64,000 nt of DNA from Candidatus Zhuqueibacterota bacterium (GCA_049322915.1 JBMOPW010000045.1:72206-136205); one strand, 5' to 3'; positions 1-17,523 are shown, numbered from the stretch's first letter. Notes: generated from the letters alone by a model not told the origin. Made by a program: numbers and translations.

Positions 1-23
1 TGGGAGAGTAGGTCATTGCCGGG
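1..23 (+). rRNA. rrf: 3' end of a 5S rRNA gene (or a 5S-derived repeat), truncated by the window start
   Basis: TGGGAGAGTAGGTCATTGCCGGG matches the bacterial 5S 3' terminus (GGGAGAGUAGG...UGCCGG) and is followed directly by a terminator. Only 23 nt are visible. Confidence 0.65.
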
Positions 24-32
24 AATAATTAT

Positions 33-64
33 AAAAGCCTCACGTCTTCGGATGTGGGGCTTTT
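33..64 (+). terminator. Rho-independent terminator with cUUCGg tetraloop
   Basis: AAAAGCCTCACGTC-TTCG-GATGTGGGGCTTTT; identical copy at 148-179. Confidence 0.85.
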
Positions 65-399
65 GTATTTATGAATAGCCGGATGCTGTGAAAATACTGT
101 CCCGCAGCCGCGGGATGGGAGAGCAGGTCATTGCCGGGAATAATTATAAAAGCCTCACGTCTTCGGATGTGGGGCTTTTGTATTTATAAATTGCCGGATG
201 ATGCGATAATACTATGCGCCAGTGGCGCATCGAAATGAGAGTTATTAGCAATTAAACTTCAGTCCATTAAAATGGAGAGACTTTGTAATTTGTTCACTTC
301 ACAGACAACCACACACGAGTAATAATAAGCGCTAAGCAAATATATTGAATCCGGAAGTCCAGTCGTTAGATTTTTCCTTGACAGAAATCTAATAATTTC

Positions 400-428
400 T
401 TGACAATTAATTGAATTTTTTGTACTTT
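400..428 (+). promoter_or_regulatory. Putative sigma70 promoter
   Basis: TTGACA-N17-TACTTT upstream of the ATG at 510. Confidence 0.5.
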
Positions 429-509
429 GTGACAGGAAAATTAAAAAACCGAAACGCTTATACTCTGCCACAAATAAAAAAAAAACTCTGTCGTCAAAGG
501 AGGCTACTT

Positions 510-1475
510 ATGCAAAAGTCGTTGATGGTTTTTCCTGTTATCTGGCTCATTTTCTCTTTATCCGCCTGGGTACAATTGCCATCGAACATCGTAAAAGTGA
601 CGGCTGACGGCTACAGCTATCTGGGTGAAGAAGACACCATGAAACAAGCCAAAGAGCGCGCCATGAAAGATGCCGAGCGTAATGCCATCGAGCAGGGCAC
701 CGGCGTCTATTTGGAATCCTACAGCAAAGTCAACATGAATATGCTGGTCAAAGACGAAGTCAAAACATTGGCTGCTGGCTATCTCATGAACAAGAAAGTA
801 GTAATCGACCGGCTGGAATCAGAGCCGCCGCGCTATCACGTGCAGATCGAGGCCGAAGTTAAATGCGCAGATATGGATAAGCTGATTGCCGCCAGGAAGG
901 CAGAGGCACAACCTCAGCAAACAGCCTTGTCTGTAGAATTCGCCGTTGTAGCTGAACGAAAATTAGCCGATGGCAGTTGGGGCGAAGTACTGGTGAAAGA
1001 TGGCGGCCAGCTGAAAAGCTTCGACAAATTTCAAGTTCACCTTCAGCCCAATGATGATTGCTACCTCTATCTGCTGTTCTATGACTCTCAAGGCAAAGCG
1101 ACGCTGTTATTCCCCAGTGAAATCATGGGCATGAACAATTTTGTCAGGAAACGCGCCGACGTCCGTGCGCCAGGGAAAAACCTGTTTTATGAATTGGATA
1201 CGGCAACCGGCGTCGAGACTATTTACCTGATCGCTTCAGCTCACCCTATGCCTGACATCGATTGGCTGCTGGAGAAAATGGAACAAGCCGGCGCTGATTC
1301 GTTATGTGCTGCCACCCTGGAAAGAACCATTCACACCAGAGGGATCGGCCGCATCACCGAAGGTAGAAAAGCCGGTTTTTCATTGAGCGATGGCCAGCAG
1401 GTGGAAAAAGTGACCGAAGTGGTGACCGGTAAAGGCGCTGTGGTGCGGAAACTGAGCTTCACCCATTTGCCATAA
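510..1475 (+). CDS. Exported DUF4384-domain protein with N-terminal FlgT/LPP20-like domain
   Basis: AAGGAGG RBS before ATG 510; hydrophobic N-terminus; 'AKERAMKDAERNAIEQGTGVYLES' (FlgT_N-like); 'DCYLYLLFYDSQGKATLLFP...GVETIYLIAS' (DUF4384). Confidence 0.7.
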   Translation: MQKSLMVFPVIWLIFSLSAWVQLPSNIVKVTADGYSYLGEEDTMKQAKERAMKDAERNAIEQGTGVYLESYSKVNMNMLVKDEVKTLAAGYLMNKKVVIDRLESEPPRYHVQIEAEVKCADMDKLIAARKAEAQPQQTALSVEFAVVAERKLADGSWGEVLVKDGGQLKSFDKFQVHLQPNDDCYLYLLFYDSQGKATLLFPSEIMGMNNFVRKRADVRAPGKNLFYELDTATGVETIYLIASAHPMPDIDWLLEKMEQAGADSLCAATLERTIHTRGIGRITEGRKAGFSLSDGQQVEKVTEVVTGKGAVVRKLSFTHLP

Positions 1476-1582
1476 TGCAACAGGAACTCCATTGACACGA
1501 ATGAGCGGATTTCCGAAAACAGCTAAATTTACAAGGGGGTTGATTTTTTCAAACTTTATTCCGTTAGACTTCATCCCTTAAT

Positions 1583-1713
1583 CGGGGCTGTAGCAAAAGT
1601 CTCATTGTCATGTATTTAGTCCAGTTTGCAATAGCGAATTTATTCGCTCTATACAATATGCGGTTTTCGACGAATAAATTCGTCACTACAAGTTAGCTTT
1701 TAATACAACCCCG
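1583..1713. mobile_element. MITE-like element with imperfect terminal inverted repeats enclosing a REP-like palindrome doublet
   Basis: CGGGGCTGTAGCAAAAG ... CTTTTAATACAACCCCG; internal AGCGAATTTATTCGCT and GACGAATAAATTCGTC-ACTAC. Confidence 0.5.
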
Positions 1714-1830
1714 GAACATCTGTTCTGCCTCCTTTTAGGAGAGGCTTGGGGTGATGTCATTATTAGCAGTTATCAGACAGACACTGTAAGGTGATGTTAT
1801 TAAAATTACAAATCAGGGGAGACTGATTCC

Positions 1831-3669
1831 ATGAGAAAATGGTCGTTAGCTTTTTTCTTAATAGCGCTGATCCTGAGTGTGGCCACTGCCCAAACCCAAC
1901 GCGGCATCAAAAGCGTTACGGCTGGCAATGCGGCAGAGGAGAAGCGTTTTGCCCTGGTCATTGGGAATGGCGGCTATGCCGATTCGCCGCTGCGAAATCC
2001 GGTGAACGACGCCCGCGCTATGGCAACAACTCTGCGGCAACTGGGCTTCGATGTGATGAGCGGAGAAAACCTCACCCTGCGCCAGATGACGGAACAGATT
2101 CTGGCGTTCGGCAAAAAGATCAAAAACGGCGGCGTGGGTTTATTTTATTTTGCCGGCCACGGCGTGCAGGTGCAGGACCGCAATTATTTGATCCCCGTCG
2201 GCGCGCACATTGACAAAGAGCAGGACGTGGAATTCGAGGCGCTCCATGCCGGTCGGGTGCTGGCGGAGATGGAGGCGGCGGGCAACCGGCTCAACATTGT
2301 CATTTTAGACGCCTGCCGCGATAATCCCTTTGCCCGCTCCTTTCGCTCTGCGGTGCGCGGGCTGGCGCAAATGTCCGCCCCCAGCGGCAGCTTCATCGCT
2401 TACGCCACTGCGCCGGGACAGGTTGCCTCCGATGGTTCAGGAACCAATGGCTTGTACACACAGGAGTTGATCGGCGCCATGCAGCAGCCCGGCTTGAAAA
2501 TTGAGGACGTCTTCAAGCAGGTGCGAGCTGCGGTGATCCGGAAGAGCAACCATAAACAGATGCCCTGGGAATCGACGTCCATTGTCGAAGATTTTTACTT
2601 TGTCCGGCCCGGCGGTTATCAGCCGCCTCTGCCCGACATTGCTGCGCCTGCCGATAAAAAACTGGACCTGAGCCGCTACGAAACTGAAGCCAGCCGGCTC
2701 GCTGCCGTAAAAGCCCAATGGCAGCAATGGCAAACCGAAATGACCAGCAGTTACCAAAAAGCGCAACGGTTGGACAGCGACGTCAATCTGGCTGCCAATT
2801 CCAAGACGCAAATGTGGCAGGAGTTTCTAACCAGCTATACTGAAGATAACCCTTACAGCCAGGAGGACGAAGATCTGCGCAGCAAAGCCAACGGCAGAAA
2901 GTATTACTGGAGCAACTTCCAGCCGCCAAAGGCGAAACCCAGCAAGCCAGCCACCACTGCCGCTGGCATTGAATGGGTCTTTGTCCCCGGCGGCACCTTT
3001 GACATGGGCGATACCTTTGGCGAAGGAAATAGCGACGAATTGCCAGTGCATTCTGTAACTGTGTCCGATTTTTACATGAGCAAAACCGAAGTCACCGTGG
3101 CGCAGTACCGCGCCTTCTGCACTGCCACCAACCGCAGTATGCCTGATCCGCCAGGTTATGGCTGGCAAGACAACCATCCAATAGAAAATGTGAACTGGCA
3201 TGATGCAGTTGCCTATTGCGAATGGGCGGGCTGTCGCTTGCCAACCGAGGCGGAGTGGGAATACGCGGCGCGCGAAGGAGGGAAAAAGGTGCGCTTTGGC
3301 AACGGCAAGCAAGTGGCTATCGCTGCCGAGATAAATTTTCAAGCAAACTATAAGTATCCATATTCGATAACTGGTGTTTATCGCCAAGAGCCAACGCCAG
3401 TGGCGAGTTTTGCGCCCAACGCGCTGGGTTTGTACGACATGTCAGGCAATGTCTGGGAGTGTTGCAGCGATTGGTACGATGCGAATTATTATCAAAACAG
3501 AGTGTCAACTAATCCAAACGGACCTTCATATGGACAGGCCCGTGTGTCGCGCGGTGGTTCATGGTATTACAAAGCAGACGACTGCCGGGCTGCAAATCGC
3601 TGGTGGGATAATCCGGCTACCGGGAACTACAACCGCGGGTTTCGCGTCGTCCAGGGTTCACCGCAATAG
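1831..3669 (+). CDS. Secreted caspase-family (peptidase C14) protein with C-terminal FGE-sulfatase/CLec domain; probable DGR target
   Basis: Signal peptide; ALVIGNGGY, YFAGHG (catalytic His), ILDACR (catalytic Cys); RLPTEAEWEYAAR, GLYDMSGNVWE, RGGSW...GFR. Confidence 0.9.
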   Translation: MRKWSLAFFLIALILSVATAQTQRGIKSVTAGNAAEEKRFALVIGNGGYADSPLRNPVNDARAMATTLRQLGFDVMSGENLTLRQMTEQILAFGKKIKNGGVGLFYFAGHGVQVQDRNYLIPVGAHIDKEQDVEFEALHAGRVLAEMEAAGNRLNIVILDACRDNPFARSFRSAVRGLAQMSAPSGSFIAYATAPGQVASDGSGTNGLYTQELIGAMQQPGLKIEDVFKQVRAAVIRKSNHKQMPWESTSIVEDFYFVRPGGYQPPLPDIAAPADKKLDLSRYETEASRLAAVKAQWQQWQTEMTSSYQKAQRLDSDVNLAANSKTQMWQEFLTSYTEDNPYSQEDEDLRSKANGRKYYWSNFQPPKAKPSKPATTAAGIEWVFVPGGTFDMGDTFGEGNSDELPVHSVTVSDFYMSKTEVTVAQYRAFCTATNRSMPDPPGYGWQDNHPIENVNWHDAVAYCEWAGCRLPTEAEWEYAAREGGKKVRFGNGKQVAIAAEINFQANYKYPYSITGVYRQEPTPVASFAPNALGLYDMSGNVWECCSDWYDANYYQNRVSTNPNGPSYGQARVSRGGSWYYKADDCRAANRWWDNPATGNYNRGFRVVQGSPQ

Positions 3670-3708
3670 GATATATACTTTAGCTCTTTTAGTCTTTTAT
3701 GCTTTGGA
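3431..3708 (+). repeat. DGR-like variable region plus IMH-like tail, copy 1
   Basis: Colinear with 6412-6689 (offset 2981, no indels); 46 nt identical across the stop codon (3646-3691 = 6627-6672). Confidence 0.75.
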
Positions 3709-3752
3709 ATTATATAGCTGAACGCACGTCGCCACAGAGGAGAATGAATTTT

Positions 3753-6650
3753 ATGTCCCGAACTATCAAAGTATTCATCAGCAGTACCTATGAAGATTTA
3801 ATTGCCGAGCGGCAGGCTGTGGAAAAGGCAATAATGCGGCTGAATGAAACCATTCCCGTAGCAATGGAATTTTTTAGCAGTAGCCCGGATACACCGTACG
3901 ACATCTGCATGAAAAAGGTCGCGGACTCGGATATTTACGTCGGCATATTTGCTCATCGCTACGGTTTTATTCCTCCCGGTCAGGCGCAGTCGTTGACAGA
4001 GCTGGAGTATCGCCAGGCAATCAATTTACACAAACCACCGCTCATTTACTTTACGGCCACTGCTGAGGATGATACACCTAAAAAAAATACCGAAAAGGAT
4101 CCATCGCCGGAGCGTGATAAACTCATTGCCCTGAAAGATGAATTAAAAAATAAGCACACCATATCATTTTTTCATAATCCGGATGAACTGGCGACCCTGG
4201 TGATTGCCGATATTCACAACCAGGGGCTCATCAATATTCCTGACGATGTCATCGAATCCCCTTACGGTCTGCTGCGCATGTACCTGGAAGCAGTACGCGA
4301 TGAACACCGTTGGCTGTGGATTTTAGCCCAGAATCGTAAAGTGGTAATGAACACGCTCTATTTGCGGCTGCAACTGTCGCAACGGTTTCGCAGCCGGGAA
4401 TTGGAAACGGCCTTGGCCGAACTGCCGGAGAAGCAATGTGCGTCAGTGGGCAGGGAGGATAAGTCGGCTGCCATTCATGATCTGGATATTCATGAAGCGT
4501 TGCAGCGTTTTACCCAGGTCGTGATCATTGGCGATCCCGGTTGTGGCAAGACGACTTCGTTACGGCATTTGGCCTATGATCAGGCTTGCCGAAATCTGGA
4601 ACGTCTTCATCAGAATCAGGAGCCGGAACAATTACCGGTTTATATTCCGTTGGGGATTCATGGCAACGCCGATAAATCGCTGCGCGATTATGTGTGGGAC
4701 GTCGTACGCGCCTATGCCTTGCCCCTGTCGGTCGCCGAGAATATTGAGACACAGGTGATGGCCGGTCGGGCATTGCTGTTGATCGATGGTCTGGATGAAG
4801 TGCCCACTGAATCGCGACGACAGGTCATCAGAACGTTTGTAGGCCTTATGAACCGCTTTCCGGCGCATCCGCTTATCGTGACATCCCGGGTGATTGGATT
4901 TGAGCATTCGTTGCCGGCAACAGTCCTCGAAGTGTTGCCACTATCCCATTCGCTGATCGATCATTTTATCCACGGCTGGTTTAAAGCTATTAGCCGGGAG
5001 TCCGATGGCGATGCCTTGTATCGTCAAATCGTTTCACAGCCGGGTTTGCTGGAACTGGCTTACAATCCGTTTTTATTATCGCTGATCGCACTGATTTTTG
5101 AGCAGGGCAAACAATTGCCGGAACGGCGGGTCGATTTGTACAATCTCTGCGTGATGACGTTGCTGGAACTCTGGGATAAAGAGCGGAAGCTGCTCGACCG
5201 GAATCGCTATGATCGCACTATTAAAGAAGACCTGTTGATGGAATTAGCCCTGCATTTTTATGAAAAAGAGCCGTTGGCGCTATTGCCAATCGGGGAAGTT
5301 TTTAAAGCGGTCGGGACAATAGTCAATCGGCTCCAGCTCGCGTGTGATTCCAAAACCATCTTAACTGAAATCGAACAGAACAGCGGTCTGCTGCGGAAAT
5401 TTTCCTACCGGCATTATGCTTTTGCTCATCGCACTTTGTTTGAATATTTTGTCGCCCGGGCGCTGGTAGCCGAAATCGATGGAACGACCCGGCTGGTGGC
5501 TTTCTTTAAAAAACATAACAGCGACTCCCAATGGAGCGAGATTTTCCGGCTGGCAACCGGTTTGTTGCAGCAACCCACTGAATTTCTGAAGCTGGTATTC
5601 GATACTGATGCGACGCTCGGCGCCCGCTGTTATCTGGATGCCAACCCGGATGCTGTCGATCACGCGGTTATCCATAAGCGTTGGGCGCAGATTGACCGGG
5701 AGCAGCGGATTAAACTGGTACAGAGTGTGCGCGAGCGGCTGCCAAAACCACCGGCCGACCAAAAGGAAATCCAAAATGCGTTGGACTTTGTGACCTTTTT
5801 GTTCCGTGTGCCGGAAACTGATACTGAGGTATTATATCATTGTGATGAACTGTTACGCGCCATTGGTTCGGATGAAGCTATGCAACTCAGCCAGACCATG
5901 TTCAACCACTGGCCCAACGACCGCAAATATAACCTGGCCGAGTTGGAAAAAGATAAATTTTGGCAACAGGTTGAAATTGAAGCCGGTGAATTTAAGATGG
6001 GTAGTAATGAAGATGACGACGAAAAACCGATTCATCGGGTAACGGTCGCTTCGTTTCGGTTGGGCCAATTCCCGGTAACAGTGGGACAGTATCAGCGGTT
6101 CGACCCGGGCCACAAAGAACAATGGCGAAAGGAGTATGGAAAATTTTTTAAAGATGCCAATCAACCGGTGGTTGAAGTAACCTGGTTCGATGCCTACATT
6201 TTCTGTAAATGGACTGGCGGTCGTTTACCGACTGAGGCGGAGTGGGAATACGCCTGTCGCGCCGGCACAACAACGCCATTTAACACCGGCGAGAATTTGA
6301 CTACGGATCAGGCGAATTACGATGGCAATTATCCCTATAAAAAATTTCCTAAAGGTAAATATCTTGAAAAAACAACGCAGGTGGGCAGTTACACGCCTAA
6401 TGCCTGGGGCCTGTACGATATGCACGGCAATGTCTGGGAGTGGTGCAGCGATTGGTATGATGCGAATTATTACCAAAACAGCGTGTCAACTAATCCGAGG
6501 GGACCCTCATCTGGAGAAGCCCGTGTGTTGCGCGGCGGTTCGTGGAACTACTATGCATACTTCTGCCGTGCTTCCTATCGCATCTGGTACATTCCGTCGT
6601 TCAGGTACAGCAGCATCGGGTTTCGTGTCGTCCAGGGTTCACCGCAATAG
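3753..6650 (+). CDS. DUF4062-NACHT(STAND)-FGE-sulfatase/CLec protein (NLR-like); probable DGR target
   Basis: KVFISST...DIYVGIFAHRYG...TELEY (DUF4062); Walker A GDPGCGKTT, Walker B LLLIDGLDE, IVTSR, NPFLLSL, FAHRTLFEYF (NACHT); CLec motifs RLPTEAEWEYACRAG, GLYDMHGNVWEW. Start chosen by AGGAG RBS spacing (ORF track starts at 3699). Confidence 0.9.
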   Translation: MSRTIKVFISSTYEDLIAERQAVEKAIMRLNETIPVAMEFFSSSPDTPYDICMKKVADSDIYVGIFAHRYGFIPPGQAQSLTELEYRQAINLHKPPLIYFTATAEDDTPKKNTEKDPSPERDKLIALKDELKNKHTISFFHNPDELATLVIADIHNQGLINIPDDVIESPYGLLRMYLEAVRDEHRWLWILAQNRKVVMNTLYLRLQLSQRFRSRELETALAELPEKQCASVGREDKSAAIHDLDIHEALQRFTQVVIIGDPGCGKTTSLRHLAYDQACRNLERLHQNQEPEQLPVYIPLGIHGNADKSLRDYVWDVVRAYALPLSVAENIETQVMAGRALLLIDGLDEVPTESRRQVIRTFVGLMNRFPAHPLIVTSRVIGFEHSLPATVLEVLPLSHSLIDHFIHGWFKAISRESDGDALYRQIVSQPGLLELAYNPFLLSLIALIFEQGKQLPERRVDLYNLCVMTLLELWDKERKLLDRNRYDRTIKEDLLMELALHFYEKEPLALLPIGEVFKAVGTIVNRLQLACDSKTILTEIEQNSGLLRKFSYRHYAFAHRTLFEYFVARALVAEIDGTTRLVAFFKKHNSDSQWSEIFRLATGLLQQPTEFLKLVFDTDATLGARCYLDANPDAVDHAVIHKRWAQIDREQRIKLVQSVRERLPKPPADQKEIQNALDFVTFLFRVPETDTEVLYHCDELLRAIGSDEAMQLSQTMFNHWPNDRKYNLAELEKDKFWQQVEIEAGEFKMGSNEDDDEKPIHRVTVASFRLGQFPVTVGQYQRFDPGHKEQWRKEYGKFFKDANQPVVEVTWFDAYIFCKWTGGRLPTEAEWEYACRAGTTTPFNTGENLTTDQANYDGNYPYKKFPKGKYLEKTTQVGSYTPNAWGLYDMHGNVWEWCSDWYDANYYQNSVSTNPRGPSSGEARVLRGGSWNYYAYFCRASYRIWYIPSFRYSSIGFRVVQGSPQ

Positions 6651-6689
6651 GATATATACTTTAGCTCTTTTACTCTTTTACACTTTGGA
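6412..6689 (+). repeat. DGR-like variable region plus IMH-like tail, copy 2
   Basis: Between GGSW and GFR nearly all variable codons are NNC/NNT (AAC TAC TAT, TAC TTC, TAT, ATC, TAC ATT, TTC, TAC AGC AGC ATC). Confidence 0.8.
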
Positions 6690-6747
6690 GAAAAGAAATA
6701 ACAGGATAGGATAGAAGAAAAATAAAGAAGGGAGCTTTCGCGGGGGT

Positions 6748-6766
6748 CTGGGGGCGGAGCCCCCAG
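6748..6766. other. GC-rich hairpin with GGA trinucleotide loop downstream of the VR (candidate DGR target-recognition hairpin)
   Basis: CTGGGGGC-GGA-GCCCCCAG, perfect 8-bp stem. Confidence 0.6.
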
Positions 6767-6844
6767 CTTTTTCTTGAGGAATAAAATTATGGCCGAGAAA
6801 GAGACCATCGTTACTAAAATGAATGATCTGGTAATTTAGTAAAA

Positions 6845-6900
6845 TGGAGTGCGGCGCCTTCATGCGCCGCCCGTGTTTCGCATGAAGGCGAAACCCTCCA
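6845..6900. repeat. REP doublet (GGAG foot), copy 1
   Basis: TGGAGT-GCGGCGC-CTTCAT-GCGCCGC...GTTTCGC-ATGAAG-GCGAAAC-CCTCCA. Confidence 0.85.
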
Positions 6901-6908
6901 TTGAAAAT

Positions 6909-6969
6909 GTACGGCGCCTTCAAGCGCTGTGAATGTAAAATGTGTTTCGCATAAAGGCGAAACACTCCA
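6909..6969. repeat. REP doublet, copy 2 (degenerate)
   Basis: ACGGCGCCTTCAAGCGCTGT...GTGTTTCGCATAAAGGCGAAACACTCCA. Confidence 0.8.
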
Positions 6970-6985
6970 TGATAGCGGGAATACT

Positions 6986-7534
6986 ATGGGACTGATAATC
7001 AAAAAATATCGACACGCACCGGCTCACTGGTTCAGTGACGATTTTTATTATTTTTTCACGGGAGCGGTTTACCAAAAAAAGCGTTTGCTTTGCACAGCGC
7101 AAACCAAAGATATTTTTATCAACTGCCTGTTTCAATTCATTGAAAAATTCAAATGGGAATTATTGGAGTGGGTGGTCTTAGAAAACCATTATCATTTTTT
7201 GGCGAAGGTACATAAAAGTGAAGACATGCCGCGTTTGATCAATGTTCTCCATAAAACCAGCGCCTTTCACATCAAAAAGAAACTCAATTTGGCAGTGAAA
7301 CCGTTTTGGTATCAATATTGGGATCGCTGCCTTCGAGACGAATGGCACTTTTTCGAAACCGCAAATTATATTCTGTACAATCCGGTGAAACATGGTTATG
7401 TTGAAAATTTGAAAGATTATCCATTTTCAAGTTTTTCAATCCGGATAAGTCAGGAAGAAGCTGAGCTGCGGAAAAATTTTTTGCTGTATAAACCGCAAGC
7501 GATTCACTATTACGATGACATTGATGATTTTTAA
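6986..7534 (+). CDS. REP-associated tyrosine transposase (RAYT, Y1 HUH)
   Basis: YFFT, VVLENHYH (HUH), FWYQYWDRCLRD, YILYNPVKHG, YPFSS; flanked by REP doublets. Confidence 0.9.
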   Translation: MGLIIKKYRHAPAHWFSDDFYYFFTGAVYQKKRLLCTAQTKDIFINCLFQFIEKFKWELLEWVVLENHYHFLAKVHKSEDMPRLINVLHKTSAFHIKKKLNLAVKPFWYQYWDRCLRDEWHFFETANYILYNPVKHGYVENLKDYPFSSFSIRISQEEAELRKNFLLYKPQAIHYYDDIDDF

Positions 7535-7537
7535 GCG

Positions 7538-7592
7538 TGGAGTGCAGCGCCTTCATGCGCTGCCCGTGTTTCGCATAAAGGCGAAACACTCC
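7538..7592. repeat. REP doublet, copy 3
   Basis: TGGAGTGCAGCGCCTTCATGCGCTGCCCGTGTTTCGCATAAAGGCGAAACACTCC. Confidence 0.85.
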
Positions 7593-7676
7593 CCAAAACA
7601 AAGGCTTCATTTCGCAGGGAAAAACCAGGAAAGAAGTTTTAGAAAACAGCCGGGACTCCATGAAAAGGATATTTAG

Positions 7677-7836
7677 CCTGCATTATTCATAGTATTTTTA
7701 AAGAGGCTGGCTAACCTGAATGGTGCTCTTTTTAGAATGAACGTACAAAAACTGAGTTTCAAAATAGCTTAGTTTTTAGCTAATTGAAAATCTGAATGTT
7801 GACTCTAATGCTGAGCAAGTTCATGAATAATTCAGG
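7677..7836 (+). mobile_element. 160-bp MITE with 14-bp TIRs and TTAG target-site duplication, copy A
   Basis: TTAG|CCTGCATTATTCAT...ATGAATAATTCAGG|TTAG; inverted near-identical copy at 22449-22609. Confidence 0.9.
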
Positions 7837-7879
7837 TTAGAAAGATTCAAAATACATAAAAAACAGTGGTGGTGAAAAA

Positions 7880-8209
7880 ATGAAACGAAAGTCATTGGTT
7901 ATTAAAGATCCTGTCGTCAGCGAATACGTAAATCAATCCCGACAGCGATTAGGGGACAGATTAAAAAATATCTACCTCTTTGGATCACGCGCCCGGGGTG
8001 ATGCATGGGAAGGCTCTGATTACGATTACGCGCTGATCGTTGATGTTCGCGATCGTATTTTGGAAGATGCAATATTGGATGTTAGTACTTTGCTATTGGA
8101 TAAGTTTGAAGTGCTGGTGTCCACACAAATTTTTACCGAACAGGAGTGGGTCATTGAACATAATTTACCATTGGGCCAAAATATAATCAAAGAAGGAATC
8201 GCCCTGTAA
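7880..8209 (+). CDS. Minimal nucleotidyltransferase (MNT antitoxin)
   Basis: YLFGSRARGDAWEGSDYD (GS...DxD); stop overlaps the HEPN start. Confidence 0.9.
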   Translation: MKRKSLVIKDPVVSEYVNQSRQRLGDRLKNIYLFGSRARGDAWEGSDYDYALIVDVRDRILEDAILDVSTLLLDKFEVLVSTQIFTEQEWVIEHNLPLGQNIIKEGIAL

Positions 8210-8595
8210 TGAAAATTCCAGAAGACATTCAGGCAACGCTGGACGCTGCAGAAGAAAAGTTGCGCGCTGCAAAAGTTCTGTTAAATGCTGGACATTTTGC
8301 TGATGCTGCTTCTCGGGCTTATTATTGTGCTTTTTTTTCGATCAGCGCGGTATTGCTTTTAGAAGGCTTAACATTTTCGAGTCATGGGCAGGCAATTGGC
8401 GCGTTCAACCGGGAGTTTGTAAAGACGGGACTGTTTCCAAAACACTTTGGTCGCTGGCTTATCAAAATGCAAAATGATCGAGAAGCCGGTGATTATCGGA
8501 CGCACTCGCCGATTGGATATCAGATTGCTGCTGAGGATATTGCGATGGCAGAGGAAATTCAAAAATTGTGTCGTCAATTTCTTGAATCAGCTTAG
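8209..8595 (+). CDS. HEPN-domain protein (UPF0332-like)
   Basis: AASRAYY, SHGQAIGAF, REAGDY; coupled to MNT. Confidence 0.85.
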   Translation: MKIPEDIQATLDAAEEKLRAAKVLLNAGHFADAASRAYYCAFFSISAVLLLEGLTFSSHGQAIGAFNREFVKTGLFPKHFGRWLIKMQNDREAGDYRTHSPIGYQIAAEDIAMAEEIQKLCRQFLESA

Positions 8596-8633
8596 TTGAT
8601 TAATTAAGCCTTCAATCGAAAAAATAATCGCTT

Positions 8634-8684
8634 GTGTAGCGCTTTTATACACTGCATTGTTTCGCGTAAAGGCGAAACACTCCA
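8634..8684. repeat. REP doublet, copy 4 (left half degenerate)
   Basis: TGTTTCGCGTAAAGGCGAAACACTCCA. Confidence 0.7.
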
Positions 8685-8709
8685 CCTGGAATTTTTTGAA
8701 TGGAATGCT

Positions 8710-10188
8710 ATGTCAATTATGCTCGATGAAAAAAAGAAAACCTATCTGCTGATTTTTCTCATTACTCTGTTCCGCCTGATCTACATCAACCTTGTCCCGC
8801 TGGTGCCGCAGGAGGCGTACTACTGGAAATACGCGAAACATCCGGCGCTGAGCTATTTCGACCATCCGCCCATGGCCGCCTGGATGATTGCGCTGTTCAC
8901 CTGGATTGGCGGAGATTCCCTGTTTTTCATCAGGCTGGGGAGCGTCCTGTATTCCGCCGGACTCATGCTGCTCGTGCATCAAATCGCCTGGCGATTGTTC
9001 AGGGATGAAAAATTGGCTTTCTGGTCTGTGGCAGTCATCAACTGCACCGTGCTTTTTTCAATTGGCGCAACCGTCATCACGCCGGACGTGCCCCTGCTGT
9101 TCTTCTGGGCGCTGATGACATTCTCTCTGGTGCGGCTGATCGAATCGGACCATCCGGGCTGGTGGTACCTGGCCGGCGTCGCCCTGGGACTGGGGCTGTT
9201 GAGCAAATACTCGGCCATCCTGATTGTGCCGGGGATTTTCATCTTCCTTCTTCTCTCCCCGAAACATCGGCGCTGGCTGGCAACGGTGCATCCCTATGCG
9301 GCAGTGGTCGTGGCGCTCATCGTTTTCAGCCCGGTCGTCATCTGGAATTTCCAGCATGATTGGGCGTCGTTCATGTTTCAGTCGTCCGACCGGTTCGCTC
9401 AAATGAAGCGGCTTCGACTGGATTTCCTGTTTCAGCTCATCGGTTCCCAATTGGGCATGCTCACGCCCTACGTCTTTTTTTTGCTGGTGACCGGTTGGGC
9501 AGCGATTGGCGTTTGGAGCATCAAAGAAAAGAATCAGCCGTACAGCCTGCTGTTTTGGATTGCGCTGCCGGTCTATGCGGTTTTCACTCTCTCCAGCCTG
9601 CGAAGCCTGGTGAAGATGAACTGGCTGGCCCCGGCCTACGTCACCTCGGTGATCGCCGGACTGGTCTGGCTCAATGCAAATCGTTCCAGTATTTCGCGCT
9701 GGTTCGATAAATTATTTGTCCCGGGCATTGTCCTGGGATTGCTCATCGTCGTGTTCATGCATGTGGTGCCGATCATCCCGATTGCGCCGCTGAAGAAAGG
9801 GGACACCTGGTCCGGCTGGAAGGAACTGGGGCAGAGAATAGAAAGGCTGAAAACTGACAGGGGAGAGGATGTGTTTGTTTTCGGCCACGAATACAAAGCG
9901 CCCAGCGAAATCACCTATTACACCGCGAGCCATCTGCCCACGCACGCCGGAGAAATTTTCGGAGCCAATGGCCTGCAATACAATTACTGGACAGATACGG
10001 CGAAACTGATTGGCAGAGATGCCATCTTTGTCACCAGCGACGCCGACCGATTCACCAACTTCAAGAAATTAAATAAACATTTCGAATCCATCGCGCCGCT
10101 GGACACCCTGGAAATTGTGCATCGGAACCGCACCTATCGGGCGTTCTACTTCTACCTGTGCAGCGACTATAAAGGACCAAAACCATGA
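8710..10188 (+). CDS. ArnT/PMT_2-family (GT-C fold) membrane glycosyltransferase
   Basis: QEAYYW, SYFDHPP, TPDVPLL, LLSKY; many TM helices. Confidence 0.85.
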   Translation: MSIMLDEKKKTYLLIFLITLFRLIYINLVPLVPQEAYYWKYAKHPALSYFDHPPMAAWMIALFTWIGGDSLFFIRLGSVLYSAGLMLLVHQIAWRLFRDEKLAFWSVAVINCTVLFSIGATVITPDVPLLFFWALMTFSLVRLIESDHPGWWYLAGVALGLGLLSKYSAILIVPGIFIFLLLSPKHRRWLATVHPYAAVVVALIVFSPVVIWNFQHDWASFMFQSSDRFAQMKRLRLDFLFQLIGSQLGMLTPYVFFLLVTGWAAIGVWSIKEKNQPYSLLFWIALPVYAVFTLSSLRSLVKMNWLAPAYVTSVIAGLVWLNANRSSISRWFDKLFVPGIVLGLLIVVFMHVVPIIPIAPLKKGDTWSGWKELGQRIERLKTDRGEDVFVFGHEYKAPSEITYYTASHLPTHAGEIFGANGLQYNYWTDTAKLIGRDAIFVTSDADRFTNFKKLNKHFESIAPLDTLEIVHRNRTYRAFYFYLCSDYKGPKP

Positions 10189-10622
10189 CCATGATTTCCC
10201 ATTGCAGCCACTGGCTGAAAAAAAGGCCTGATCTCGTTCGATTCATCAAATTCGGCATTGTCGGCGGCAGCGGCGTGATTGTCAATCAGTTCTTTCTGTG
10301 GCTGTTCACCGAGAAGGTCGGATTTCATTATCTGGTGTCGAGCGTTCTGGCCATTTTTCTGGCCATGATCAGCAATTTCATCTGGAATGATTTATGGACC
10401 TGGCGGGATCGCGGAGCGCCCGGCATCAAGGCGTATTTCGTTCGACTGATCAAATTCTGCATCGTCAGTAGCATCGCCGGCTACATTGGGAATTTGGGCA
10501 TCCTGTGGATTCTGACGCACTTCTTTCACATTCATTATTTAATATCAAATCTTTTCGGAATCGCCGTTGGCACTGTTTTGAATTATTTTTTCAATAATAT
10601 CTGGACGTTCAAACGTCGCTGA
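10185..10622 (+). CDS. GtrA-family flippase-like protein
   Basis: RFIKFGIVG, NFIWNDLWTW, NYFFNNIWTF; 4 TM segments. Confidence 0.85.
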   Translation: MTMISHCSHWLKKRPDLVRFIKFGIVGGSGVIVNQFFLWLFTEKVGFHYLVSSVLAIFLAMISNFIWNDLWTWRDRGAPGIKAYFVRLIKFCIVSSIAGYIGNLGILWILTHFFHIHYLISNLFGIAVGTVLNYFFNNIWTFKRR

Positions 10623-10639
10623 GAATTTCTTTTCAGTGT

Positions 10640-10681
10640 AAAAAAAAGGCCTGAACTCATCAGAGTTACAGGCCTTTTTTT
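10640..10681. terminator. Bidirectional terminator between gtrA and nuoN
   Basis: A8-GGCCTG...CAGGCC-T run. Confidence 0.8.
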
Positions 10682-10704
10682 ATATCAACAATCGATGAGA
10701 AATT

Positions 10705-12222
10705 TCAGAAGAGCATTTCAGCCCACTGCAACGACCATCTCATCAGCGGCGCGGGAAGCACACCCAGAATTAAGACGAACAACGCGGACAGCCCTAACGA
10801 TGCCCAGACCGGGGCCAGGCCGGATGCGCCGATTTCCGTGAGTTCATTTTCAGGCTCTTTCATGTACATGACGATGAGGACATTGATGTAAAAATACAGG
10901 GCGACGAGGCTGAAGATCAGCGCGATAACCGCGGTCACGTACATTTTGCCTTCGAGAAGCTGCAGGAAGATTTGAACCTTGCCGACAAATCCGACTGCCG
11001 GCGGCAGGCCAGCCAACGAGAACATGGCAATGGTCATCATGGCTGCGGCGCCGGGATGTTTCCGCGCCACGCCCCGGAGATCGTCCAGGGTTTCGCAGTA
11101 GTGATCTTTATGGGTCAAATACACGAGCACGCCGAACGCGAGCATGTTCATGGCGATGTAGCCGATGCCGTAGAAAAGCACGGCCTGGGCGGCTTCGATT
11201 TTGTGGCTCATGGGAGCCAGCGCCAGCCCCATGTACCCGGCGTGGGCAATGGACGAATAGGCCAACATGCGCTTGACATTTTTCTGAACGATGGCGACCG
11301 AGTTGCCGTAGATGACGGTGATCAGCGCGAAAAATCCGAAAATGACAGTGAAGACGGAATCAAATGCATGGAACGAAATTTCAGCAGCGAATAATTTCAA
11401 AATCACGGCGAAGGCGGCCAGCTTCACACCCACGCTCATAAAAGCGGTGATCGGTGTGGCCGCGCCTTCGTAGACATCCGGCGTCCATGCGTGGAACGGC
11501 ACCATGGACACCTTGAAGGCCAGCCCGATGAAGAGGAAAATCAGTCCCAGCCCGGACAGGAGCGATTGAATAGTCACCTGTTCGAAGGACAGGTTTTTCA
11601 GGACATCAGTGATCACCAGACTGCCGGTCGCTCCATAGACGAAGGAAATACCCAGCAGCAGAAACCCGGACGAAAAGCCGCCTAGCAGCAGATATTTGAT
11701 AGCCGATTCCCCGGCGCGGGAATTAAATTTTTTCAGACCGACCAGGGCGTAAATGGGAAGCGACATCATTTCCAGCGCCAGAAAAAGGATGACAAAATTT
11801 TCAGCCGCAATGAGCGTCAGCGCGCCCAACAGGGAGAAAAGCAGCAGGATGTAGTAGTCCGTCGCCGGAATGACCTGGGCCAGCGTGTAGCGGGCGGACA
11901 TCAGCACTGCAAAAAGTCCGGCGCTTATGATGGCAATTTTGCCAATGTAGAGACCGCCGCCGGCGTTCAGCGAATTGTGCAGCAGAACAACCTGCTCGCC
12001 GGCCGTGCTTTTTCCATAAACGAGGAGCAGGATGGTCGCCAGGAACAGTCCGCTGCCGGCGATCCAGCTCGACTGAATGTTGCGGGAGTTGAGCCCGGGG
12101 GCGTTCCCGAACAGCGCAAAGATGGGCCGTTGCAGAGCGTCAGCGATGGTCATAATGACGATGAGCGCGATCAGACTAAATTCACCGATGAGAAAAACGG
12201 GTTGAAAAGAGATTTCGTTCAT
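10705..12222 (-). CDS. nuoN: NADH-quinone oxidoreductase subunit N
   Basis: FKVSMVPFHAWTPDVYEGA, KRMLAYSSIAHAGY; start moved to MNEISF. Confidence 0.95.
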   Translation of the reverse strand: MNEISFQPVFLIGEFSLIALIVIMTIADALQRPIFALFGNAPGLNSRNIQSSWIAGSGLFLATILLLVYGKSTAGEQVVLLHNSLNAGGGLYIGKIAIISAGLFAVLMSARYTLAQVIPATDYYILLLFSLLGALTLIAAENFVILFLALEMMSLPIYALVGLKKFNSRAGESAIKYLLLGGFSSGFLLLGISFVYGATGSLVITDVLKNLSFEQVTIQSLLSGLGLIFLFIGLAFKVSMVPFHAWTPDVYEGAATPITAFMSVGVKLAAFAVILKLFAAEISFHAFDSVFTVIFGFFALITVIYGNSVAIVQKNVKRMLAYSSIAHAGYMGLALAPMSHKIEAAQAVLFYGIGYIAMNMLAFGVLVYLTHKDHYCETLDDLRGVARKHPGAAAMMTIAMFSLAGLPPAVGFVGKVQIFLQLLEGKMYVTAVIALIFSLVALYFYINVLIVMYMKEPENELTEIGASGLAPVWASLGLSALFVLILGVLPAPLMRWSLQWAEMLF

Positions 12223-12400
12223 AAGAAGTCCAGAACTATTTAGGTGGTTAATAGAAAAGTATCGTAACTGCTCAATTTCCAGGTCAAAGGTTCCCGGTTC
12301 AGGGTTAAAAAAATATTCATTACAAAATATAAAAAACGAAATGATTCTAACCTTGAAGCCCGAACTCTGAACCAGCCAACCTGGATTGTTACAAGTATCG

Positions 12401-14023: not shown

Positions 14024-14127
14024 TAAAGACTCCAACCTTTTATAATCATTTGTTTGCGATGAGAAAATGACGCACTGTGCGGTTGTTGCCACACAGGATT
14101 TAAAATAATAACTTAATTATGTCTCCA

Positions 14128-16077: not shown

Positions 16078-16083
16078 AACCCG

Positions 16084-16416
16084 TTAGCCCCTTTCTTCGG
16101 AATATGTTTCCACGCCAATTGTGCCGGTTCGCTTAAAAAGCTGGACGATGATGGCAATGCCAATTGCGACTTCACACGCAGCGACCACAAAAATCATGAG
16201 CGATAAAATTTGTCCATCCAGATTTTGATGGATTCGCGAAAAATAGATCAGGCTCAAATTCACGGCATTGAGGATGAGCTCCACGCCCATCAGCATGTGA
16301 AGCAGCGTCCGTCGGAAGATGAACGTCAGCGTACCAATTGCAAAAAGCGCCATGACAACCGCGAGAGAAAAAATCCCTCCTGTTCCTAAAATGAAATCGT
16401 TAAGAGGATTATTCAT
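16084..16416 (-). CDS. nuoK: NADH-quinone oxidoreductase subunit K
   Basis: GVELILNAVNL, AACEVAIG. Confidence 0.93.
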   Translation of the reverse strand: MNNPLNDFILGTGGIFSLAVVMALFAIGTLTFIFRRTLLHMLMGVELILNAVNLSLIYFSRIHQNLDGQILSLMIFVVAACEVAIGIAIIVQLFKRTGTIGVETYSEERG

Positions 16417-16960
16417 TCTTACGACCTTTCCAATCCAATTGAACAATTGAAATGACTGCAACAATCGCCGCGAAAAGCACGGTTGAAACATATTCGAAGG
16501 CAAAGACATATTTCGTCAGCAGTGTGCTGGAGAATAACCAAATACTGCCAATGTCTTTGGGCGTCGCGGATGAGTCAGCAGCCGCGTTCAGTGCAGCAAA
16601 TGGCTGAGGCTGGCCGCTGACAGCGGCGTAGAGTTTGTAAATGAACAGGGCGACCAGCGCCGCAATGACCGGTCCGCCGATCCAGAAAAGCTTTGAATAG
16701 GATTGCAGATAGTCTTCGCTTTTCACATCGAGGAGCATGATGAAGTAAATGATGAGTACCATCACCGCGCCGGCGTAGATGATGACCTGAAACGCAGCAA
16801 TGCTGTGAGCCTGAAGAATGGCGTACATTCCGGCCAGCGCCAGCATCGAGGCCAACAGCCCCAGCGCGCTGCGAATGGGGTGCCGGGCAAAGAGCATCAC
16901 AACTCCACCGGCGATTGCAGTGATCCCAAAAACATAATACATCAGGATGTTGAAATCCAT
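16409..16960 (-). CDS. nuoJ: NADH-quinone oxidoreductase subunit J
   Basis: QVIIYAGAVMVL, FEYVS. Confidence 0.93.
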   Translation of the reverse strand: MDFNILMYYVFGITAIAGGVVMLFARHPIRSALGLLASMLALAGMYAILQAHSIAAFQVIIYAGAVMVLIIYFIMLLDVKSEDYLQSYSKLFWIGGPVIAALVALFIYKLYAAVSGQPQPFAALNAAADSSATPKDIGSIWLFSSTLLTKYVFAFEYVSTVLFAAIVAVISIVQLDWKGRKNE

Positions 16961-17001
16961 TTATGTTTCCTTTGAATAAATGATAATAGATGAATCGGTC
17001 T

Positions 17002-17316
17002 TTATGTCAAGTCCCATGGTTCTCGTTTCCTTTTCTTTTGAATATCCATGGCACCGTGGATGATTGCGACAATTTTTACGGCTTCATTCTGAAGTAAATA
17101 TACAATTCTATATTGGTGAAAGAAGATTTCTCTCAGGTTTTCATTTTCAAACTCAGGAACAATTCTTCCGCACGTAGGAAACGTTCTGATTTTTTCAATG
17201 GAATCGATTAGCTTATCAATAAAAATTATCGAGTAGAAGGGCGAACCTTTGCTAATATATGAATCAATTTCTTGCAGGTGATCCTTAGCTAACTCCGACC
17301 AGATGATTTCCGCCAT
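17002..17316 (-). CDS. RelE/ParE-family toxin
   Basis: IIWSELAKDHLQEI...FPTCGRIVPE...YRIVY...IVAIIHG. Confidence 0.88.
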   Translation of the reverse strand: MAEIIWSELAKDHLQEIDSYISKGSPFYSIIFIDKLIDSIEKIRTFPTCGRIVPEFENENLREIFFHQYRIVYLLQNEAVKIVAIIHGAMDIQKKRKREPWDLT

Positions 17317-17489: not shown

Positions 17490-17523
17490 TTGATTTTTTT
17501 TCAAAGACAATAGTCGTTTAAAA

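Follow-up and report, generated by a model that had tools for sequence, protein, structure and literature searches.

A DUF4062-NACHT-lectin gene with a DGR-type variable end beside the remnant of a bAvd-type retroelement in a Candidatus Zhuqueibacterota bacterium

In the 64,000 nucleotides of Candidatus Zhuqueibacterota bacterium analysed here (GCA_049322915.1 JBMOPW010000045.1:72206-136205, hereafter the window), the gene at 3753-6650 encodes what we consider to be, with good probability, an intact cytoplasmic NLR-like NADase sensor, the tip of which was once written by a diversity-generating retroelement (DGR) whose destruction has left the specificity fixed. By analogy, a ligand would bind the C-terminal FGE-type lectin domain at a surface formed by the variable region (VR), binding would free the NACHT NTPase for oligomerisation, and the oligomer would gather the N-terminal DUF4062/NIR TIR-like domains, which might then hydrolyse NAD+ via the second Glu of a TELEY motif and halt the growth of the infected cell; the NADase activity, the triggering of oligomerisation by a ligand and the immune role are all inferred from relatives. 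A bAvd-type DGR would have written the sensor tip, with the exported caspase-lectin gene next door as its other target, and from this neighbour the NACHT gene may have gained its bAvd-type 3′ cassette through recombination. The Avd-RT-TR element would have stood just downstream before it was destroyed, with a RAYT/REP insertion cutting Avd to 16 codons. Both sensors would now be fixed in specificity, because this element is destroyed and no template or matching RT is left in the assembly.

The gene and its domains are located as follows:

3753 to 6650, plus strand: gene of the 965-aa DUF4062(NIR)-NACHT-FGE/CLec protein (ORF list, translation, Pfam), intact, stop codon TAG at 6648-6650
3768 to 4019, plus strand: DUF4062/NIR domain, predicted TIR-like NADase effector (PF13271, E 7e-23; TELEY at 3996-4010)
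4515 to 4985, plus strand: NACHT NTPase domain (PF05729; Walker A at 4530-4556, Walker B at 4773-4799)
5967 to 6632, plus strand: FGE-sulfatase-type C-type-lectin domain, predicted sensor, non-catalytic (PF03781, E 1.9e-61; TvpA match)

An ORF without interruption spans 3699-6650 on the plus strand, and the ATG at 3753, with GGAG on its 5′ side, yields 965 aa, equal to the length of the database entry for the protein (P0005). Pfam matches were obtained for DUF4062 (PF13271, residues 24-107, 81.1 bits, cut-off 24.7, E 7e-23), NACHT (PF05729, residues 273-429, 48.2 bits, cut-off 26.7, E 1.4e-12) and FGE-sulfatase (PF03781, residues 757-978, 208.4 bits, cut-off 23.3, E 1.9e-61), where the residues follow the numbering of P0001, counted from 3699, while all motif positions in this text follow the 965-aa numbering. 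The domain order is therefore that of effector, NTPase and sensor, and the tripartite layout that a preliminary description of this DNA had proposed, pending HMM confirmation of the domains, is borne out by all three profiles above their cut-offs. The same description had reported intact Walker motifs, which hold, and a cytoplasmic protein without signal peptide. Walker A (GDPGCGKTT, residues 260-268, nt 4530-4556) and Walker B (LLLIDGLDE, residues 341-349, nt 4773-4799) are intact, with G260, G263, G265, K266 and D345 invariant in a 29-sequence alignment. The N-terminus is without a hydrophobic stretch (Kyte-Doolittle), and the sole window of at least 1.6, at residues 431-450, lies within the NTPase module, in its conserved NPFLLSLIALIF helix; since the only hydrophobic window falls inside this module and none is N-terminal, a cytoplasmic location is plausible.

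The DUF4062 domain matches the solved KpSwz chain 10wc_A (E 1.4e-8, residues 4-92) and the human TEP1 chain 11gz_A (E 4.4e-5), and a TIR-like fold is predicted from this homology to solved DUF4062 chains; a single-sequence structure model of residues 1-216 had a mean pLDDT of 36.7 and was unused for fold search. The TELEY motif, noted earlier as retained, occupies residues 82-86 (nt 3996-4010). In the motif (T-x-L-E-Y/C) it is the second Glu that is conserved, being kept in 15 of the 16 homologs viewed, compared with 11 of 16 for the first. This second Glu (E85) falls opposite the Ala of TEKAF in the alignment with 10wc_A, which the available text of the KpSwz preprint describes as an E97A construct (10.64898/2026.05.01.722283), and E85 is the family-conserved and probably catalytic residue. 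According to the same text, KpSwz hydrolyses NAD+ and requires E97, while the available text on PsAvs2 (DUF4062-STAND-TPR) describes NAD+ depletion and a loss of defence upon E108Q (10.64898/2026.09.04.749371). The earlier proposal of a TIR/NDT-like, NAD-directed effector thus finds experimental support in these relatives.

It is improbable, in our estimation, that the NACHT protein has a role other than NAD-depleting immune sensing and acts instead in signalling, as a decoy or as an effector with another activity. Such a role would fit the scores of the protein, none of which reaches the cut-off of a named defence family among the PADLOC and NCBIfam models: the PADLOC Avs2 model gave 14.2 bits (E 0.0015, below threshold), PDC-S60 gave 39.7 bits on the NTPase part only, and NCBIfam EruA gave 41.2 bits against a cut-off of 1000. 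It would also fit the neighbourhood, which is no classic defence island, and the discussion in the available text of Kaur 2020 (PMC7159879) of FGS domains as 'neutralising' binders and of inactive enzyme domains as decoys. Against it stand the predicted catalytic Glu and both Walker motifs, intact and conserved, and three 2026 preprints on DUF4062 NADase effector activity and Glu-dependent defence, in the available text of which the DUF4062 proteins are all NADases and the bacterial ones all defensive. Scans with Rfam (1-14000) and for tRNAs (1-20000) returned no match.

The lectin domain matches the Treponema denticola DGR variable protein TvpA (2y3c) with an E of 1.2e-25. A catalytic FGE was considered and rejected: where the FGE of S. 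coelicolor (6muj/2q17) reads LCHDSYC, with two Cys that we take to be the catalytic pair, the NACHT protein reads NYYAYFC, and the lectin domain is predicted to be non-catalytic because the first Cys of the pair is a Tyr, which lies inside the VR. The variable ends of the NACHT gene and of its upstream neighbour are the following:

6543 to 6620, plus strand: VR core of the NACHT gene, 26 codons (28 differences from the sister VR; ortholog divergence)
6621 to 6693, plus strand: constant IMH-like tail with a conserved post-stop motif (CTTTAGCTCTTTTACTCTTTTAC.CTTTGG), from alignments, common to 3640-3712
1831 to 3669, plus strand: gene of a 612-aa exported protein with caspase (Peptidase_C14) and FGE/CLec domains (Pfam), the putative sister target
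3562 to 3712, plus strand: 3′ end of the caspase gene, with the VR core at 3562-3639 and the constant tail at 3640-3712, from the repeat alignment

A direct repeat (3379-3678 against 6360-6659, 78%) covers the closing ~330 nt of the two genes, and it consists of a well-kept 5′ part, a core of ~78 nt with 28 differences and a near-identical tail that extends to ~45 nt past the stop. The core differences fall at codon positions 1, 2 and 3 in 14, 7 and 7 cases, respectively. The VR string WNYYAYFCRASYRIWYIPSFRYSSI corresponds to residues 931-955 (nt 6543-6617); Y, F, S and I account for 15 of these 25 residues, in agreement with the richness in Tyr/Phe/Ser/Ile described previously. Among six orthologs, the mean pairwise identity of the VR is 0.41, the lowest of all segments, against 0.65-0.84 in the others, while the scaffold residues RGGSW..A..CR.A.R....P..R....GFR are conserved. 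Of the hypervariable sensor proposed in the preliminary description, the DGR-type VR anatomy and the lowest ortholog identity are seen, and hypervariability itself we only infer.

Comparison with the templates of relatives revealed that the differences between the two VRs are enriched where the TRs of G010:C65 and G030 carry adenine, with an odds ratio of about 5 (p about 2e-4), and that the NACHT VR mismatches the relic TR of G010:C63 at 14 of 26 A sites and 12 of 65 non-A sites; these templates are heterologous, and the figures show an enrichment but fall short of the exclusive placement at A that marks a genuine TR/VR pair. Genuine DGRs on homologous NACHT/KAP-lectin targets in relatives have their mismatches at TR adenines in 18/18, 18/18 and 14/14 cases. 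The variable codons coincide with AAC/AAT codons in the relatives' templates. The resemblance of the sensor end to a DGR-type variable region, putatively rewritten by a DGR in former times, is more than chance.

The caspase protein matches Peptidase_C14 (E 1.9e-43) and FGE-sulfatase (E 9.3e-60), and it has a signal-peptide-like hydrophobic N-terminus and the dyad motifs GHG and DACR, with the His at residue 109 and the Cys at residue 160. Its status as a sister target was absent from the preliminary description. Together with an MNT/HEPN pair (Pfam), this caspase-lectin gene is the exception in the neighbourhood described above. The 3′ end of the NACHT gene is a mosaic: the N-part of the FGE domain shares 50/129 residues with the neighbour and 90-98 of 127-130 with orthologs, the pre-VR part shares 45/62 and 39-42 of 61-62, and the tail 10/10 and 4/8, respectively, the close orthologs all carrying a GFRLVFVP tail.

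Downstream of the NACHT gene, three further features were located:

6748 to 6776, plus strand: terminator-like hairpin (CTGGGGGC-GGA-GCCCCCAG) with a T run, 3′ of the NACHT gene
6789 to 6839, plus strand: remnant of a bAvd accessory gene, 16 codons (MAEKETIVTKMNDLVI) and then a stop (translation, homology to G010:C63)
6845 to 7592, plus strand: REP-associated tyrosine transposase (RAYT) gene (6929-7534) with 55-nt REP-like repeats (6845-6899 and 7538-7592), terminating the Avd remnant

The stub and the start of the bAvd-like gene in G010:C63 are identical at 41/47 nt and 14/15 aa (tblastn E 1.5e-5), and the latter gene matches Pfam bAvd with an E of 3.7e-10. The RAYT, present in one copy in the genome, scored 100.9 bits with the NCBIfam model REP_Tyr_transpos (cut-off 80). 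A near-identical hairpin is located 5′ of the Avd gene in G009:C13 and 3′ of the targets in the metagenome loci L131/L132, while DNA folding of 6615-6790 gave nothing besides the terminator (z -0.48) and no hairpin after the VR. Apart from the 16-codon stub, no RT or Avd remnant was found in 6600-9000. A third copy of the repeat, as a TR would form, was absent from the window and from the assembly even at word size 7, the assembly being a metagenome bin, 96% complete, so that a cassette on an unbinned contig may have been missed. No intact Avd of the window's bAvd type was detected in G000, and RVT_1 matches genome-wide number only two, one in the C16 DGR and the other in the C34 RT. The latter was discarded as a DGR RT, being an RT-TPR-AEP(TOTE) primase fusion adjoining Cas6. 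The TRs of C16, the genome's only complete DGR, and of C14, a TR-only locus, were rejected as cognate templates because their constant tails differ. In view of these observations, the DGR-retargetable specificity proposed earlier is unsupported as a present-day property: there is no cognate TR in the window or assembly, the C16 and C14 tails do not match, and Avd amounts to 16 codons. The earlier proposal of ligand-triggered NAD depletion with retargetable specificity is upheld in its NAD-directed effector, through the experiments on relatives and the kept Glu, and not in its retargeting today.

The same tail type was found in G010:C63, G018:C53, G013:C35, G011:C571, G005:C455, G105:C83 and L131/L132. 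Truncated or isolated Avd genes with this tail type, and no RT in the fetched flanks, were observed in G010:C63, G018:C53, G009:C13 and G011:C571, and the cassette is decayed in 5/5 readable loci, window included. Both G073:C177, which keeps Avd, RT and TR, and G010:C63, which keeps a TR remnant, share the tail and the post-stop motif. It is very improbable that the 3′ end was never linked to a DGR, gene conversion having partly homogenised the neighbouring lectin domains while the cores diverged by ordinary selection. The absence of the cognate TR, which places adenine specificity beyond direct demonstration, and the 7/28 differences at third codon positions would fit such an origin, against which stand the bAvd stub, located exactly at the position of the lineage's accessory gene, the tail and motif in common with G073:C177 and G010:C63, the variable codons that are AAC/AAT in relatives' templates, and the scaffold residues conserved among orthologs.

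Searches with these markers beyond the relatives were also carried out. The exact 26-nt tail pattern had 0 matches in metagenome contigs, and a degenerate tail pattern had one match in viral contigs, in a giant-virus MAG, which was taken as chance. The post-stop motif scan returned three loci, two of them FGE targets that carry this tail type and hairpin but are orphans, without Avd or RT, and the third a motif match only. A protein scan of genome contigs produced 609 matches, nearly all from the FGE motif WEWCSDWY and uninformative on orthologs. In G001, of the same genus, the contig stops 700 nt beyond the PMT_2 gene, leaving the locus outside the readable sequence.

A formerly written and now fixed sensor has a competitor in continued diversification in trans, by an Avd-RT-TR on an unassembled or unbinned contig or in a structural variant carried by part of the population, which we regard as unlikely. 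The completeness of the bin, only 96%, leaves room for it, and the C14 locus of the same genome comprises a TR whose mismatches to each of two VRs all fall at adenines (15/15 and 15/15), with no RT nearby; the RT is therefore either missing from the assembly, where it could act in trans, or very recently lost, and the argument from absence is weakened. Moreover, both window genes are intact, their tails are near-identical over about 95 nt, as expected after recent homing, and the available text of Doré 2024 (PMC10907252) reports trans diversification as well as loci whose DGR looks incomplete while intact structural variants occur in the same population. Opposed to these points are the lack of any TR-like sequence at word size 7, of an intact Avd of the lineage in G000 and of more than 16 codons of the local Avd, as well as the decayed cassettes with the same tail type in four relatives. 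The two VRs also differ at three non-A proxy-template sites (27-nt stretch 5′ of the VR core) and seven times at third codon positions, and ordinary drift since the last homing is therefore suggested.

In the population data, contigs of run X1, probably the source sample, cover 3000-3675 and 3646-6656, both VRs included, without a single difference, and are interrupted at the tail common to the two genes; as rare variants are lost in contigs, this invariance carries little weight. X2 and X3 gave conserved FGE fragments only. Variants listed at 6413-6440 were rejected, as they belong to FGE genes of other organisms.

Beyond the fixed sensor that we favour, a more speculative course of events, which we hold to be rather doubtful, is a cycle in which an HRDC-type tail (GFRLVFVP) was exchanged for the neighbour's bAvd-type tail, both genes were diversified from one template, and the retroelement was then lost. 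A cytoplasmic and an exported sensor under one template might in that case have sampled the same binding-site repertoire inside and outside the cell, and the loss might have been repeated, in 5/5 readable loci of the bacterial family and in C14 and C7 of the genome. If this is true, immune-type sensors would seem to employ DGRs in episodes and not permanently. In any case, the decayed cassettes caution that a VR-like end does not equal ongoing hypermutation, and they hint that sensors are often left frozen after retroelement loss.

Both the diversification of NACHT-lectin sensors by DGRs and the decay of such systems through transposons have been described before (Doré 2024, PMC10907252; for the idea, Kaur 2020, PMC7159879), as far as the available text of both goes. 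The 'putative antigen sensors' of Doré 2024, STAND NTPase/C-type-lectin proteins diversified by clade 5D DGRs in Thiohalocapsa PB-PSB1 and other multicellular bacteria, are described there with a central NACHT/STAND and a C-terminal FGE-type lectin with a VR, like the protein of the window. Their loci likewise have usually two adjacent targets, N-terminal effectors such as TIR or peptidase, and cytoplasmic and exported targets together; transposons and MITE-like elements degrade DGR components, and VR-bearing lectin ends move between genes by recombination. The window differs from them in its host phylum, in its bAvd-type and now lost retroelement, and in its DUF4062/NIR effector, which goes unmentioned in the main text of Doré 2024 (PMC10907252).

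TvpA (PDB 2y3c), presumably a surface lipoprotein, shares the FGE-type C-type-lectin fold and the VR at the C-terminus, and it is without NACHT and effector domains. PsAvs2, in the available text (10.64898/2026.09.04.749371), combines an N-terminal DUF4062/NIR with a conserved Glu, a STAND NTPase and a C-terminal sensor, and couples sensing to NAD+ depletion; its sensor is a TPR array recognising phage terminase, whereas the window protein has a lectin fold with a DGR-type VR and a NACHT NTPase. The Swarozyc protein KpSwz (PDB 10wc/11cq/11cv) has a homologous DUF4062 NADase that needs its motif Glu E97, but contains no NTPase, the phage portal binding the AUX domain directly and fibre-like assemblies being formed, as given in the available text (10.64898/2026.05.01.722283). 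The NACHT protein joins two lines of work, the NAD+-destroying DUF4062/NIR effector of 2026 and the proposed DGR-diversified NLR-like 'antigen sensors' of 2020-2024, one natural protein uniting, on a single NACHT scaffold, a lectin sensor of DGR type with a predicted NIR effector. It offers a single-gene test case for whether a lectin VR can gate a STAND NADase, and the close orthologs, whose VRs differ, provide a natural set of specificity variants ready for use. DUF4062 directly N-terminal to NACHT is also described for the eukaryotic TEP1, NWD1, NWD2 and NPHP3 in the available text of the KpSwz preprint (10.64898/2026.05.01.722283), where, unlike in the window, the C-termini are of WD40/TPR type, without a lectin sensor or retroelement.

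The NACHT gene, read from a start at 3753, encodes 965 aa, which is the length of P0005, the database entry for the very same protein. The preliminary description had claimed a DUF4062, NACHT and lectin protein with intact Walker A/B and a retained TELEY motif, and the HMM search in Pfam matched all three domains while the motifs were recovered by motif search, as listed below (P0001 is counted from 3699; motifs and VR follow the 965-aa numbering).

3699-6650, forward strand: open reading frame of the NACHT gene (ORF listing)
P0001 residues 24-107, forward strand: DUF4062 (Pfam, E 7e-23)
P0001 residues 273-429, forward strand: NACHT domain (Pfam, E 1.4e-12)
P0001 residues 757-978, forward strand: FGE-sulfatase domain (Pfam, E 1.9e-61)
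Residues 82-86: TELEY motif
Residues 260-268: Walker A, GDPGCGKTT
Residues 341-349: Walker B, LLLIDGLDE
Residues 931-955: VR string as first quoted

The proposed lack of a signal peptide is plausible, with no hydrophobic segment detected at the N-terminus by the hydropathy scan, and the sole hydrophobic window of the protein (431-450) is a conserved NTPase-module helix. The DUF4062-NACHT-FGE architecture is not rare, as PF13271, PF05729 and PF03781 were combined in 13 among the 120 homologs listed, the window's own entry included. Judged from its sequence, the gene encodes a real and intact NIR-NACHT-lectin NLR-like protein, with a sensor tip of DGR origin.

Three 2026 preprints report DUF4062 as a TIR-like NADase in phage defence. 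In KpSwz (Swarozyc), E97 is required and the phage portal is the activator (10.64898/2026.05.01.722283), and PsAvs2, in which DUF4062 is combined with STAND and TPR parts, depletes NAD+ and is no longer defensive as an E108Q mutant, its preprint also describing NIR domains in other NLR-like proteins (10.64898/2026.09.04.749371); the Evangelion systems are described as having a common core with other DUF4062 NADases. In sequence, the window DUF4062 matched 10wc_A, the solved chain of KpSwz, at E 1.4e-8 and the human protein TEP1 at E 4.4e-5. Since TELEY aligns with TEKAF of 10wc_A, the structure of which is an E97A construct (10.64898/2026.05.01.722283), the second E of TELEY most likely corresponds to the catalytic residue. 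This second Glu is kept in 9/10 aligned orthologs and in 6/6 more distant DUF4062 homologs, where the motif takes the forms TELEY, TIDEY, TWLEC, TRLEC and THLEY, while the first position is Glu in 9/10 aligned orthologs and in just 2/6 of the distant homologs. An NAD-directed effector, as first suggested, would thus extend to the window protein by homology to the NADases of the preprints, with the conserved Glu kept.

The lectin domain is similar to TvpA, a variable protein diversified by a DGR (2y3c, E 1.2e-25). The first Cys of the FGE 'LCHDSYC' pair is absent from it, so its reading as an enzyme (FGE) was rejected and the domain is a putative binder. Comparison of six orthologs with 70-76% identity revealed a mean pairwise identity of 0.41 in the VR vs 0.65-0.84 in all other segments, with the scaffold residues invariant; the VR scaffold reads CCCGTGTGTTGCGCGGCGGTTCGTGG ... 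GGGTTTCG.GTCGTCCAGG. Of the "probably hypervariable" sensor, the standing of the VR as the least conserved segment is upheld. The contigs of the one run that contains the locus, in which rare variants are invisible, gave 0 differences over both VRs; these contigs end at the tail common to both genes.

The second VR belongs to the neighbouring target gene.

1831-3669, forward strand: caspase-lectin gene, 612 aa, directly upstream of the NACHT gene (Pfam, motifs)

Its product has a signal-peptide-like N-terminus, a Peptidase_C14 domain (Pfam, 1.9e-43) with GHG at 109 and DACR at 160, and its own FGE-type lectin domain (Pfam, 9.3e-60). The final ~330 nt of both genes form a direct repeat (3379-3678 vs 6360-6659, 78%) composed of a well-conserved 5′ zone, a 78-nt core with 28 differences (14/7/7 at codon positions 1/2/3), and a tail that is near-identical across the stop codon and ~45 nt further, which reads as the anatomy of two VRs of one DGR. 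The lectin N-part of the NACHT protein (739-868) is identical to the caspase neighbour at 50/129 residues vs 90-98 of 127-130 to orthologs, the pre-VR (869-930) at 45/62 vs 39-42 of 61-62, and the tail at 10/10 vs 4/8. With the N-part ortholog-like and the pre-VR and tail neighbour-like, the 3′ ~290 nt of the NACHT gene therefore derive from, or were homogenised with, the cassette of the caspase neighbour. Through this exchange, a kind of recombination proposed by Doré 2024 (PMC10907252), the HRDC-type DGR formerly serving the NACHT gene would have given way to one of bAvd type.

Beyond these two copies, the 3′ repeat was not found again in the 64-kb window, and neither a megablast-like search nor one with a word size of 7 recovered it elsewhere in the assembly (6.25 Mb, 96% complete). 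RVT_1 matches occur at two places only, on contigs C16 and C34. C16 carries a complete DGR (FGE target, bAvd, TR and RT, with 15/16 mismatches at A), the TR and tail of which are unlike those of the window, and it was rejected as the cognate template. The RT of C34 (429473-433078, L004) was rejected as a DGR RT, being fused to TPR repeats and to a primase domain of the archaeo-eukaryotic type found in the TOTE conflict system (PF22548, 2.9e-45) and adjoining a Cas6 gene. A further TR lies on contig C14 (L099 3576-10316), arranged as follows.

3576-6827: NACHT-FGE target 1
7127-7259: TR
7359-9557: NACHT-FGE target 2, interrupted by an in-frame TAG
Then: IS200-like Y1 transposase

Both VRs of C14 deviate from the TR at adenines only (15/15 and 15/15), no RT or HRDC gene was found at this locus, and its TR was rejected as the template for the window VRs because the tail differs. 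On contig C7 (209745-210620), an FGE-domain gene precedes what is left of a DGR-type RT, an N-terminal stub of ~40 codons (MQPLKTYKNLFDKITSFENL...) that is cut by repeated REP/MITE-like units right before a gene for glutaminyl-tRNA synthetase; the genome has here its third decayed DGR.

Downstream of the NACHT gene, the following features were identified.

6748-6766: terminator-like hairpin, 3′ of the NACHT gene and 5′ of the Avd stub
6789-6839, forward strand: Avd stub (ATG...TAG), ~140 nt past the NACHT stop, encoding MAEKETIVTKMNDLVI
6845-7592: single-copy RAYT gene between REP-like 55-nt repeats (6845-6899 and 7538-7592)

The stub agrees at 41/47 nt and 14/15 aa (tblastn E 1.5e-5) with the beginning of a gene from a related genome (G010:C63), which scores as bAvd-like in Pfam (3.7e-10) and is likewise placed after a same-tail target. 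The stub ends where the first 55-nt repeat starts (6845), and this repeat has just 4 matches across the assembly. No RT or additional Avd remnant was detectable in 6600-9000, and no intact Avd of the same lineage was found in the genome. The "DGR-retargetable specificity" proposed at first was therefore not supported for this genome, with no cognate TR found and the adjacent bAvd reduced to a stub; in the assembly, the NACHT gene is an orphaned DGR target, and its sensor is probably frozen. Y1 transposases also lie directly 3′ of DGR-type targets at C14 and, in G009:C17, at the corresponding syntenic position, which suggests that the site downstream of VRs is a preferred landing site for such transposases.

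Intact DGRs on homologous targets exist in relatives. G030:C16 carries a TR, a NACHT-FGE target, HRDC and RT with 14/14 mismatches at A, its target having 39% identity to the window protein overall and a much better conserved C-terminal half, and G010:C65 carries FGE, HRDC, RT, TR and KAP-FGE with mismatches at A of 18/18 and 18/18. The GFRLVFVP tail of both DGRs recurs in every close ortholog of the NACHT protein. The window tail type, GFRVVQ..., was matched through the tail in five other genomes of the phylum sample (G010, G013, G005, G011 and G105), and any match to the tail query was obtained in 31/167 genomes; G158 and G162, both unpublished, are counted in this tally and in the Avd tally, and neither genome underlies any of the claims. 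The same-lineage Avd is truncated or isolated at G010:C63, G018:C53, G009:C13 and G011:C571, with no RT in the fetched flank. G010:C63 retains a TR remnant cut at the 3′ end, the NACHT and FGE parts are split at G018:C53, and the G009:C13 locus starts at the contig start with its target gene outside the view. Counting the window, decay was seen at 5/5 loci with readable DNA past the same-lineage Avd, these kin being non-independent and their breakpoints different. At two JGI metagenome loci (L131/L132), this tail type and the hairpin occur with neither Avd nor RT, and the only cassette of the lineage seen intact, with tail, bAvd, RT and TR, is that of the distant relative G073:C177.

When templates of G010:C65 or G030 were used, the two window VRs differed at 18/35 A columns vs 16/95 non-A columns (p 2e-4). 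Against the relic TR of G010:C63, mismatches were found at 14/26 A and 12/65 non-A sites for the NACHT VR (p 0.0016), and at 13/26 A and 17/65 non-A sites for the caspase VR (p 0.047). These results are enrichments with heterologous templates and not proof, and the non-A differences and seven third-position differences fit drift since the last homing.

DGR-diversified STAND/NACHT-lectin sensors, paired targets, and TIR and peptidase effectors were already reported by Doré 2024 (PMC10907252), along with trans diversification, incomplete loci and transposon degradation of DGRs, and Kaur 2020 (PMC7159879) anticipated these concepts. The term "DUF4062" is absent from the main texts of both papers, formylglycine, retroelement, lectin and DGR do not appear in those of the three DUF4062 preprints, and full-text literature searches on DUF4062 and PF13271 returned no DGR paper among the matches.

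A T-rich motif after the stop, CTTT.GCTCTTTTAC.CTTTTAC.CTTTGG, with repeated TCTTTTA-like units, was observed at 3662-3708 and 6643-6689 and after every VR of the bAvd-type lineage (also L111, L097, L129 and L131/L132), being kept between phylum-level relatives; it may act as a signal for homing, or as the promoter or leader of Avd. G013:C35 (L112 3666-8813) encodes a 612-aa TIR_2-FGE protein with the tail type of the window targets, adjoining an Eco57I/N6-methylase-type restriction-modification gene, and the contig ends ~550 nt past the VR. The PMT_2 glycosyltransferase and GtrA genes of the window (8632-10622) are syntenic in the family (vs G010:C65, G009:C17 and G001:C59), and upstream of them is a slot that varies in content between genomes in the manner of a hotspot: G010 has a DGR of HRDC type, complete and with KAP-FGE, G009 has an FGE target with an IS200-like gene, and the window has the orphaned pair. 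Overlapping nucleotidyltransferase (Polbeta/NTP_transf_2) and HEPN genes at 7880-8595 form an MNT/HepT-type toxin-antitoxin-like pair, the NTase of which matches the PADLOC candidate PDC-S09 (2.9e-16). The interval 411-1475, 5′ of the caspase gene, encodes a DUF4384 protein that has a hydrophobic segment at its N-terminus, and two tandem 112-nt repeats, 89% identical, lie at the window start (1-227).
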